A stretch of DNA of 64,000 nucleotides from the NCBI GenBank assembly GCA_051251855.1, contig JBPOGI010000004.1, positions 288,001 through 352,000 of the forward strand, given 5' to 3'. The number at the start of each line of letters is the position of its first letter. The first letter of the stretch is position 1. The translations under genes were made by a program, and so were the position numbers. This DNA comes from Roseibacillus sp. (lineage in GTDB: Bacteria; Verrucomicrobiota; Verrucomicrobiia; Verrucomicrobiales; Akkermansiaceae). Positions 14,720-16,332 of this stretch are shown piece by piece. The notes under the pieces were generated by a model. The model saw only the letters and a list, made by a program, of their open reading frames with translations. It was not told the origin of the DNA and did no database searches.

Positions 14720-15280
14720 TCACCCCTTTGCAGCGACCCGAGCCTCTTCCAGATACTCCAAACTGCCATGCTTCTCACACCAACCTTCTATGTAATCAAA
14801 GTCCAACTGGTCCTCTTGCCGAAGAAGGACTTTTACCACATCATCAAAATCTTTCGCTCTCGCCGCTCCCTTGGTCCAGCGAAGCTTCTGAACCACCACA
14901 TCTTCCGCCGACGCTATCCAAGTTTCGATTCCTTCCCCCAGGTCAACCCGCACTCTCCGTCGAAACCGTTCCTGGTCGAACTCATCTTCACTTAAATGAA
15001 AAACTTCAATTTCAAAGAGACTCCCTTCGGTAAAAATCAGCTTCTTCCGAGTCGCAGTAATCATCTCGAATCCACCTTGCGGATCCAGCATCATCCCCTC
15101 AGGTAAATCTTCTGACAAGCGACTCCATGACTGGTCATCAAACCTAAGAACAATATCAGCATCTTTAGTCGCTCGAGGAATTCCAAAATAGTTCGAGGAA
15201 AATGATCCAACCACCATATAAGGAATCTCCCGCTTATTCAGAAACTGAACAAATTGAGCCAATAATTTCGAACCCGTCAT
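14720..15280 (-). CDS. Nucleotidyltransferase toxin, MenT1 (Rv0078A)-like
   Basis: Start reassigned to ATG 15280, which overlaps the upstream stop. YMVVGS...PRATKDADIV gives the G-[GS]...DxD signature; also ASAEDVVVQKL and RAKDFDD. Confidence 0.7.
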   Translation of the reverse strand: MTGSKLLAQFVQFLNKREIPYMVVGSFSSNYFGIPRATKDADIVLRFDDQSWSRLSEDLPEGMMLDPQGGFEMITATRKKLIFTEGSLFEIEVFHLSEDEFDQERFRRRVRVDLGEGIETWIASAEDVVVQKLRWTKGAARAKDFDDVVKVLLRQEDQLDFDYIEGWCEKHGSLEYLEEARVAAKG

Positions 15281-15513
15281 TTGCCCATTCTGTCCGCTAA
15301 TTTTAAAAGTCGCTTCAATTCCTGTCGCAACGCCGTTGCTGACCAGGTTGGATTCTGCGCCTTCAGCCCAGCAAGACTTACTCGACAAGCATCATCGAAC
15401 AACTCAACACCCGAGAAAAACCTCTCTCGATCACTCATCCGCCGCGCCTGCTCGACCTTACGAGCATCGCACTCCGCCGCCTCCTGGCGAATCTGTTCCG
15501 ACGTGATTTCCAC
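15277..15513 (-). CDS. Small helical antitoxin, MenA1 (Rv0078B)-like
   Basis: About 78 aa from GTG 15513; ATGA-coupled to the NTase; ERF...LFD...GLKAQNPTWS...ELKRLL pattern. Confidence 0.6.
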   Translation of the reverse strand: MEITSEQIRQEAAECDARKVEQARRMSDRERFFSGVELFDDACRVSLAGLKAQNPTWSATALRQELKRLLKLADRMGK

Positions 15514-15630
15514 GGTCAAAGAATAGCCCACGCTCGCAGAAACCTCAACGCCCATTTCAATGGCTACGAACACCCTTCACACCCACGACTCTCTATTGCA
15601 AACTGCTCCATCTCAGTCTAAAACCAAGCC

Positions 15631-16158
15631 ATGAAGCTCTATCTGCTCGCACTGGCGCTGTTTCTCAGCTCCTGCGCCATGAACACCGGCAAGTTCGTTC
15701 CCGAGGAAAAACAGTCCCGTCTCCCCGACCTCTACGAGCGGGACCAATACAACCGCCTTGTCGGACTCCGCAGCTACGGAGCCAAAGATTACCTCCTCGT
15801 CTTCTTCTATCCCGAAGCCGACACCCCCGGATGAATCAAGCAATGCAAAGCACTGGAGTCTTCAGTGCAAAAACTCGCCAACGCCAAAGTCCGCGCCCTC
15901 GGAGTCTCTATGGACTCCATTTCCAAGCAAAAGGCCTTCTCTGATAAATACAACCTCACTTTCCCCCTCCTTTGCGACATCGACGGCTCCATGTGTGACA
16001 AATTCGAAGTCCCCCATCCCAACAACCGCCCTGCCCGCATCAGCTTCCTTTTCCACGACCAACAACTCATTTGGACCGACTACACCGTCACCCCTGCCCG
16101 TCACATTGACCACGCCCTCGAAGCCGTCGCGGAACATCGTTCTGGCACCCTCAACTAA
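15631..16158 (+). CDS. Lipoprotein peroxiredoxin (BCP/PrxQ-like), probable selenoprotein with UGA at 15832-15834 read as Sec
   Basis: ORFs 15631..15834 and 15865..16158 are in the same frame. Joined sequence: lipobox LSSC, FFYPEADTPG-[TGA]-IKQC, GVSMDS, FPLLCD and conserved Arg (PARISF). The TGA sits exactly at the peroxidatic Cys of PxxxTxxC. Confidence 0.85.
15850..15868 (+). promoter_or_regulatory. Bacterial SECIS-like hairpin
   Basis: GCACTGG-AGTCT-TCAGTGC stem-loop. The apical GU lies 24-25 nt after the UGA, and the loop resembles the E. coli fdhF AGGUCU loop. Confidence 0.7.
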
Positions 16159-16167
16159 CCCCATCTT

Positions 16168-16332
16168 ATGAAAATCATCCTCATTCTTACCCCCCTCTTT
16201 GCACTCACTTCCTGCGCCCTCGTCACCACCCCGTTAAAAGTCGCAGGGAGTGCCGCTGGCGCCGCCATTAACATCACTGGTAAGGCTGTCGGTGCTGGAG
16301 TCAGCCACCTCGGCAAAGATAAATCCGAATAA
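16168..16332 (+). CDS. Small glycine/alanine-rich lipoprotein (54 aa)
   Basis: Below the ORF-track cutoff. Manual translation MKIILILTPLFALTSC-ALVTTPLKVAGSAAGAAINITGKAVGAGVSHLGKDKSE with lipobox LTSC. Confidence 0.7.
   Translation: MKIILILTPLFALTSCALVTTPLKVAGSAAGAAINITGKAVGAGVSHLGKDKSE

Follow-up and report, generated by a model that had tools for sequence, protein, structure and literature searches.

A putative lipid-anchored selenocysteine peroxiredoxin of Roseibacillus sp. encoded across an in-frame UGA codon

Overview

Positions 15,631 to 16,158 of the window (the whole 64,000-nucleotide stretch of Roseibacillus sp. DNA that was analysed) appear to contain a genuine selenoprotein gene, whose predicted product is a lipid-anchored selenocysteine (Sec) peroxiredoxin of the cell envelope. 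We assign this reading as a whole a probability of about 0.93, with a higher confidence for the recoding of the UGA codon alone: the apparent stop within the reading frame is almost certainly a codon for selenocysteine, placed at the catalytic site. The gene adds a well-supported new member to an already known class of Sec peroxiredoxins. The decisive evidence is conservation: 34 genomes contribute 35 sequences that have the UGA at codon 68, some as distant as about 36–40% identity, with the predicted SECIS hairpin lying at the same offset. A selenoprotein with a SECIS-like hairpin had been proposed here in a first-pass annotation made from the sequence alone, and that proposal is borne out. 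The features of the gene and its product are listed in Table 1.

Table 1. Features of the Roseibacillus Sec peroxiredoxin gene and its product, in window coordinates.
Feature	Position	Strand	Basis or remarks
Complete CDS of the Sec-containing BCP/PrxQ peroxiredoxin (pre-lipoprotein)	15631..16158	+	175 aa, one ORF read through TGA; start ATG 15631, stop TAA 16156-16158
Signal peptide ending in lipobox L-S-S-C15 (predicted lipid-attachment Cys 15673-15675)	15631..15675	+	Sequence
Active-site motif P61-x3-T65-x2-U68	15811..15834	+	P61, T65 and position 68 invariant in the 28-sequence alignment
In-frame UGA, inferred selenocysteine 68 (peroxidatic residue)	15832..15834	+	Same alignment column as the peroxidatic Cys in every Cys paralogue
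Cys72 (the +4 Cys of U-x3-C)	15844..15846	+	Cys in 6/35 and Val in 29/35 Sec orthologues
Putative SECIS hairpin, 7-8 bp stem, apical loop AGUCU 15857-15861 (G 15858, U 15859)	15850..15868	+
Cys115 (LL-C-D strand), variable	15973..15975	+	Cys in 17/35 Sec orthologues
Cys122, helix 4	15994..15996	+	Cys in 35/35 Sec orthologues and 0/31 Cys paralogues; helix 120-125 in the model
Catalytic Arg136	16036..16038	+	Invariant (28/28) in the alignment

The gene and its protein family

Codon 68 is the sole in-frame TGA of the reading frame, in the context FFYPEADTPG-U-IKQC, and under the standard code the list of open reading frames splits the gene into a 67-residue piece (15631–15834) and a 97-residue piece that begins at GTG 15865. 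The read-through product matches Pfam AhpC-TSA across the TGA (E 6e-23), and its best NCBIfam matches are PRK09437 (71 bits) and PrxQ (54 bits), both below the equivalog cut-offs, with AhpC at 20 bits. A structure model of the read-through protein, built on an alignment of 28 sequences, has a pLDDT of 93, and its top matches in the PDB are BCP/PrxQ proteins, with TM-scores of 0.72–0.77 at 23–28% identity. The marks of the peroxiredoxin superfamily are present, namely the PxxxT/SxxC(U) motif and the conserved catalytic arginine, and the profile and structure matches place the protein in the BCP/PrxQ subfamily. About a third of PrxQ proteins have no resolving Cys, according to the accessible part of PMC4749874, and this placement is thus unaffected by the missing Cys at +5 discussed below.

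The UGA codon and its hairpin

Downstream of the UGA, the hairpin GCACTGG-AGTCT-TCAGTGC spans +16 to +34, the letters at +24 and +25 being G and U, and has a folding energy of -10.3 kcal/mol. The bacterial SECIS consensus, as given in the accessible part of PMC13188914, has a loop of 3–9 nt, a stem of 4–16 bp, a spacing of 16–37 nt, a G within the first two loop positions and a minimum free energy of -7.5 or below. The peroxiredoxin hairpin falls within these bounds in energy, loop (3–5 nt), stem (7–8 bp) and spacing (22–23 nt), and its loop G is the first or second loop position, as the consensus demands.

By itself, the hairpin is evidence of modest weight only. Its single-sequence z-score is -1.2 in a 49-nt window and -2.7 in a tight 28-nt window, ranging from -0.9 to -1.4 across windows of 49–101 nt, and three of 300 synonymous recodings fold as stably as the native sequence. 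An equally stable hairpin lies over +24/+25 in 17 of the 834 called genes of the same genome that end in TGA; -7 kcal/mol together with the loop letters is reached by four of the 834, two of these being the peroxiredoxin gene and fdhA. This single-sequence significance is weak, and we therefore do not take the hairpin as primary evidence. No promoter consensus was found around the gene, and the sole terminator-like match at the locus lies on the opposite strand and corresponds to the SECIS.

Selenocysteine machinery and the genetic code

The source genome consists of 13 contigs and is 95% complete; its nearest named relatives are Roseibacillus records at 78–92% identity. Searches of the genome detect selA (E 2e-112) and selB (E 1e-98), a tRNA-Sec (selC) scores above the Rfam cut-off, and selD is present with an in-frame TGA of its own at the usual Cys position, followed by a hairpin with a GGUCU loop. 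The first-pass annotation had predicted a Sec-decoding trait in this organism and proposed a search for the sel genes, naming the lack of selA, selB and selC as grounds for dismissal; the full set is there. Insertion of selenocysteine at codon 68 directed by SelB and the hairpin is strongly supported: SelB-GTP-Sec-tRNA(Sec) would bind the hairpin, the loop of which begins 22 nt past the UGA, and deliver selenocysteine at that codon.

A wholly different account of the UGA is that it is read as tryptophan genome-wide, which would make residue 68 a Trp and the protein non-catalytic. Verrucomicrobiota are indeed named among the phyla with UGA-to-Trp recoding in the accessible part of PMC13462651. 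In this genome, however, TGA is the stop codon of 834 of the 3733 called genes, and both tRNA-Trp genes have a CCA anticodon, which means that UGA has not been reassigned in general; the only tRNA found with a UCA anticodon is tRNA-Sec, and homologues in the 28-sequence alignment carry Cys, never Trp, in the column of residue 68. Contradicted by the stop-codon usage, this account is rejected and its probability is negligible.

Conservation across genomes

A first comparison set held 41 related genomes, eight of them of the same genus, and an orthologue with TGA at the site is present in seven of the eight; in the remaining one (G006, 90% complete) none was found. selA and selB each occur in the same 21 of the 41 genomes. 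In a family-wide search 79 of 251 family genomes gave matches at E 1e-27 or better. Part of these were inspected (30 loci and 13 more, along with loci from the 41-genome comparison), and the pooled set, from which three duplicate named records were excluded, contains 35 TGA-bearing and 31 Cys-bearing sequences; as the genomes are kin, the Sec and Cys counts are not independent events. The alternation of Cys and UGA in this column, which the first-pass annotation had put forward as a check, is thus observed. Among the 34 genomes with a UGA orthologue, selB was detected in 32, and the two with no selB match (G196 and G258), both fragmented assemblies, have selA. Eight family genomes with no selB match carry Cys at the site.

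The two forms also differ in the nucleotides and residues that follow. A hairpin of -7 kcal/mol or below is present in 30 of the 35 Sec sequences, with a weak one (-4 to -5.5 kcal/mol) in the other five, and in none of the 31 Cys sequences; the loop signature G24-(U/G)25-C26 is found in 33 of 35 and in 0 of 31, respectively. All 31 Cys forms have an 'RD' dipeptide, replaced by RS, ES, QA, EA or RA in 33 of the 35 Sec forms, a change that looks like a trace left in the protein by the RNA loop. When ten of the hairpins are aligned, 86% of the cells are paired and four of the seven stem pairs have changed on both sides, with a covariation control that ignores relatedness. Downstream of the UGA, dN/dS is 0.06–0.48 in seven of nine pairs, the other two being saturated, and the part 3′ of the UGA is, by this measure, under purifying selection; upstream values for distant pairs were set aside, as an ungapped comparison breaks down at indels.

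These patterns bear directly on whether the locus is merely a pseudogene, created by a recent nonsense mutation or a sequencing error. The two pieces obtained under the standard code would fit such a history, and the intact Cys paralogue in the genome could render this copy dispensable. Against it stand the recurrence of the same UGA in 34 genomes, the purifying selection on the downstream part, the conserved and covarying hairpin, and the co-occurrence of the UGA with the Sec machinery. Conservation refutes this explanation, which we reject as extremely unlikely.

Several variants were seen within the Sec clade. In one of them T-F-W-U replaces T-P-G-U at the active site (L073, L079, L220 and L223), and in the L220 orthologue the Trp codon immediately ahead of the UGA is replaced by TAG, possibly reflecting decay or an assembly error. 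One genome (G055) contains two copies of the Sec lipoprotein gene (L229 and L230) with the ancestral RD and a GGGAC loop sequence, which are possible intermediates in the evolution of the SECIS.

Public annotation breaks the gene up. Among proteins of 96–307 residues there are nine relatives at E 1e-20 or better, each covering at most 61% of the query, and three protein-database representatives stop exactly before the UGA. In RefSeq, R. persicicus and R. ishigakijimensis have 'redoxin domain-containing' fragments of 102 and 108 residues that start past the UGA. The expectation that standard pipelines would miss the gene is correct in that it is broken up, although it is held as split fragments and not labelled a pseudogene as had been supposed. 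Read as proposed here, the annotation of two cultured Roseibacillus species is corrected, in which the RefSeq fragments are without the catalytic residue and the signal peptide.

Lipid anchor and envelope location

The N-terminus, MK-LYLLALALF-LSSC, has a basic start and a hydrophobic stretch, and its LSSC lipobox occupies residues 12–15. A lipobox-like Cys at this spacing is present in all 35 Sec orthologues and in one of the 31 Cys paralogues (by a loose pattern), and lspA is present in the genome; the lipoprotein signal predicted in the first-pass annotation is supported by both. From the lipobox we infer export of the pre-protein, with a lipid attached at Cys15 that would anchor it in the cell envelope.

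Origin of the Sec lipoproteins

The nearest relatives of the Roseibacillus protein are exported Cys-type BCPs of the Verrucomicrobiales, at 28–43% identity; one is encoded in the same genome (L022) and is 32–34% identical to it. These proteins resemble the Sec form in their compact C-terminal part and their signal-like N-terminal segments. They differ in having C-x4-C (30 of 31) and the RD dipeptide, and in being without the hairpin signature, the helix-4 Cys and (in 30 of 31) the lipobox.

A scan of metagenomes for the TxxU motif yielded at least 120 further Sec-BCP stretches (L080–L199). Nearly all start about 43 residues before the site and have no lipobox; among these at least 120 matches a lipobox at the Roseibacillus spacing was found in one, which itself belongs to the Roseibacillus-type Sec clade. 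In most of these cytoplasmic-type Sec-BCPs the hairpin loop (GGUUC or AGUUU) lies near +18, whereas the SECIS loop of the Sec lipoprotein clade starts at +23, and 51 of them keep U-x4-C.

The Sec lipoproteins fall into a single cluster in phylogenetic trees (SH-aLRT 98–99), and this cluster joins the exported Cys paralogues of the Verrucomicrobiales (SH-aLRT 100), apart from the other Sec-BCPs; these are two 'quick' trees of about 140 columns, with 108 and 48 of 174 extracted rows, and a single clade of all Sec-BCPs is not rejected by the AU test (p-AU 0.146). This grouping suggests a duplication followed by a separate Cys-to-Sec change. The Sec gene probably arose by duplication of an exported Cys-type Verrucomicrobiales BCP, after which the change from Cys to Sec, the acquisition of the SECIS and the gain of the lipobox would have occurred.

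Peroxide reduction and recycling

By established peroxiredoxin chemistry, the selenolate of U68, set by Pro61, Thr65 and Arg136, would reduce H2O2 or organic or lipid hydroperoxides and be converted to a selenenic acid. The resolving positions recognised in the accessible part of PMC4749874 are N-terminal, C-terminal, helix-2, helix-3 and helix-5 only. The protein belongs neither to the CxxxxC subtype of 2-Cys PrxQ, the helix-2 position (+5) being K73, nor to the helix-3 subtype, the column of Xanthomonas C84 aligning with S104. Loss of the C-x4-C resolving Cys is a trait of the whole Sec clade (0 of 35, versus 30 of 31 Cys paralogues), as is an invariant Cys in helix 4. A constraint of the SECIS on codon +5 is unsupported as a reason for this loss: 51 of at least 120 metagenomic Sec-BCPs keep the +5 Cys, and the codon sits just upstream of the stem.

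Because no known position for a resolving Cys is occupied, a '1-Sec' mechanism seems most likely, in which the selenenic acid would be recycled by the external thiol of an exported thioredoxin/TlpA-like protein. We consider resolution by an external thiol moderately probable, and this is the least certain step of our best explanation. The genome encodes a 705-residue membrane protein with DsbD_N, DsbD_TM and thioredoxin domains, as well as several candidate exported UxxC thioredoxin-fold selenoproteins with signal-like N-termini that are candidate donors. The donor may in turn be supplied by the DsbD/ScsB-like membrane protein, as in the ScsB-TlpA-PprX system of Caulobacter. Taken together, the most likely arrangement would be a selenoperoxidase in the envelope whose recycling depends on exported thioredoxin-like proteins, themselves fed by a DsbD/ScsB-like transporter.

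Two cysteines of the protein itself compete with an external thiol for this role. Were Cys122 in helix 4 to resolve the selenenic acid, the protein would be an atypical '2-residue' enzyme using a position outside the five recognised ones. We regard this as a tentative and, on balance, unlikely alternative, even though all 35 Sec sequences (two families) and none of the 31 Cys paralogues have this Cys, a pattern complementary to that of the helix-2 resolving Cys, which 30 of the 31 paralogues have. It is also kept without Cys115 in 18 of the 35 and is therefore more than one partner of a fixed structural disulfide. However, the whole pattern may stem from one evolutionary event, and helix 4 is not among the five resolving positions in the accessible part of PMC4749874. 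Xanthomonas PrxQ, moreover, has a Cys in the same column, so Cys122 may be structural; the trapped disulfide mutants of that enzyme concern C48 and C84, as far as its accessible description goes. Nothing relevant to the role of a helix-4 Cys was found in a literature search.

The other cysteine is Cys72, which the first-pass annotation had paired with U68 as an unusual U-x3-C; read as a functional selenylsulfide pair, this would make Cys72 the resolving residue. It shares a helix with the usual +5 resolving Cys in the model, and it is retained in six Roseibacillus sequences despite near-saturated synonymous divergence, with both TGC and TGT in use. The spacing does not hold up as a distinctive feature, since the six sequences with Cys at +4 are all close Roseibacillus relatives, the other 29 of the 35 clade members have Val, and Cys is found there in none of at least 120 metagenomic Sec-BCPs. 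With Ala in 28 of 31 Cys paralogues, this is a position for small residues at which Cys reads as a conservative substitution, and the flanking residues are equally conserved within the subclade; a resolving role for Cys72 is accordingly doubtful, indeed rather improbable. It is very unlikely that the resolving residue is anything other than an external thiol, Cys122 or Cys72.

Genomic neighbourhood and other selenoprotein candidates

Nine nucleotides past the peroxiredoxin stop lies a gene on the + strand (16168–16332) for a small lipoprotein of 54 residues, with weak matches to NF038104 and DUF6726 that are below the cut-offs. To the left, on the - strand, is a divergent overlapping gene pair (14720–15573) encoding a 98-residue protein of no family and a 222-residue protein with a weak match to the nucleotidyltransferase family DUF6036; the pair resembles an antitoxin/nucleotidyltransferase-type pair and is also found beside one other orthologue. 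Synteny is lost beyond close relatives, with the small lipoprotein gene lying beside the orthologues of two other genomes and glpK beside two, and no operon partner is thus implied.

The genome holds about two dozen selenoprotein candidates with in-frame TGA codons (loci including L201–L217), along with FdhA, SelD and MiaB. Of 14 that were scanned, ten match Pfam families across the TGA and four (L202, L206, L213 and L214) match nothing; the families matched are thioredoxin/TlpA-like, deiodinase-like, MsrA, ArsC-like, SelW/Rdx and VPGUxxT, the last over its NCBIfam cut-off. Signal-like N-termini, judged by eye, are present in 11 of the 14. Candidate exported selenoproteins with no Pfam or NCBIfam match are L213 (G000:C8:391850-393200) and L214 (G000:C1:1391700-1393000), and L215 and L216 are further candidates of no recognised family. 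From these sequences the genome looks as if it encodes a selenoprotein-rich envelope. We also note a cluster of ten tRNA genes (G000:C10:114076-115599), possibly on a mobile region; several of its anticodons are duplicated elsewhere in the genome.

Roseibacillus is an aerobic genus. The wider genome is more striking than the single gene, with some two dozen selenoprotein candidates set against the rarity of selenoproteins in aerobes, which seldom keep them according to a 2026 review. Having both Cys and Sec paralogues in one cultivable genus provides a clean paired system in which to measure the benefit of selenium in an oxidising envelope. The same pair can be used to test the carving of a SECIS into coding sequence (RD to RS or ES) and the recycling of a Sec peroxiredoxin that has no canonical resolving Cys. 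A more far-reaching proposal is that of an independently evolved, lipid-anchored selenoperoxidase of the Verrucomicrobiales that forms a U68-C122 selenylsulfide and acts, in a marine member of the Verrucomicrobia, inside an envelope redox chain made largely of exported selenoproteins. We hold this combination to be speculative and rather unlikely; if true, the selenylsulfide would be a sixth resolving position of the peroxiredoxin fold, moved from helix 2 to helix 4.

Comparison with known systems

The experimental prototype of the Sec peroxiredoxins is reportedly the enzyme from Eubacterium acidaminophilum described by Sohling in 2001. The family is catalogued as Sec 'Peroxiredoxin (Prx)', COG1225/Bcp, PF00578, with the motif TxxU, in the accessible parts of PMC9312934, PMC13188914 and PMC1088965. 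It is a common family, with at least 120 matches in our metagenome scan; in the Sargasso set it ranks second in abundance, with 43 genes (PMC1088965, accessible part), and five Cys-to-Sec events have been counted in it (PMC1794560, likewise). The string 'Verrucomicrob' is absent from the main text of PMC13188914, PMC9312934 and PMC1794560, whose supplements might list such genomes, and 'lipoprotein' is absent from the main text of the first two. Searches for literature on selenium in Roseibacillus or Verrucomicrobia, or on exported Sec peroxiredoxins, found nothing on this clade, the accessible part of PMC4807772 included; subscription papers were mostly outside their coverage.

The Roseibacillus protein shares with the catalogued family a single Sec at the peroxidatic position of PxxxTxxU, a BCP-type fold and a SECIS within the ORF. 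Unlike that family, the members of its clade are predicted lipoproteins with an invariant helix-4 Cys, and they group in the tree with Cys paralogues of the Verrucomicrobiales and not with the other Sec-BCPs. The solved BCP/PrxQ structures that it matches, Sulfolobus Bcp1 (3drn), yeast Dot5 (2a4v), Mycobacterium BcpB (5epf) and Xanthomonas PrxQ (3gkm), are all Cys enzymes with no lipoprotein signal in the matched region, and the helix-3 resolving Cys of the Xanthomonas enzyme aligns with Ser104.

Closest in its presumed setting is PprX of Caulobacter crescentus, a periplasmic BCP/PrxQ reduced by TlpA via ScsB (PMC3322552, accessible part). Both are PrxQ-type peroxidases that are exported, by prediction in the Roseibacillus case, and a DsbD/ScsB-like transporter as well as exported TlpA-like proteins are encoded in the Roseibacillus genome. 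PprX is a Cys enzyme that has a resolving Cys and whose signal sequence is 20 residues long, according to the same part of PMC3322552; compared with that description, the Roseibacillus protein uses Sec, has a lipobox and is without a helix-2 (+5) or helix-3 resolving Cys. The particular features of its clade are the predicted lipid anchor and the invariant helix-4 Cys.
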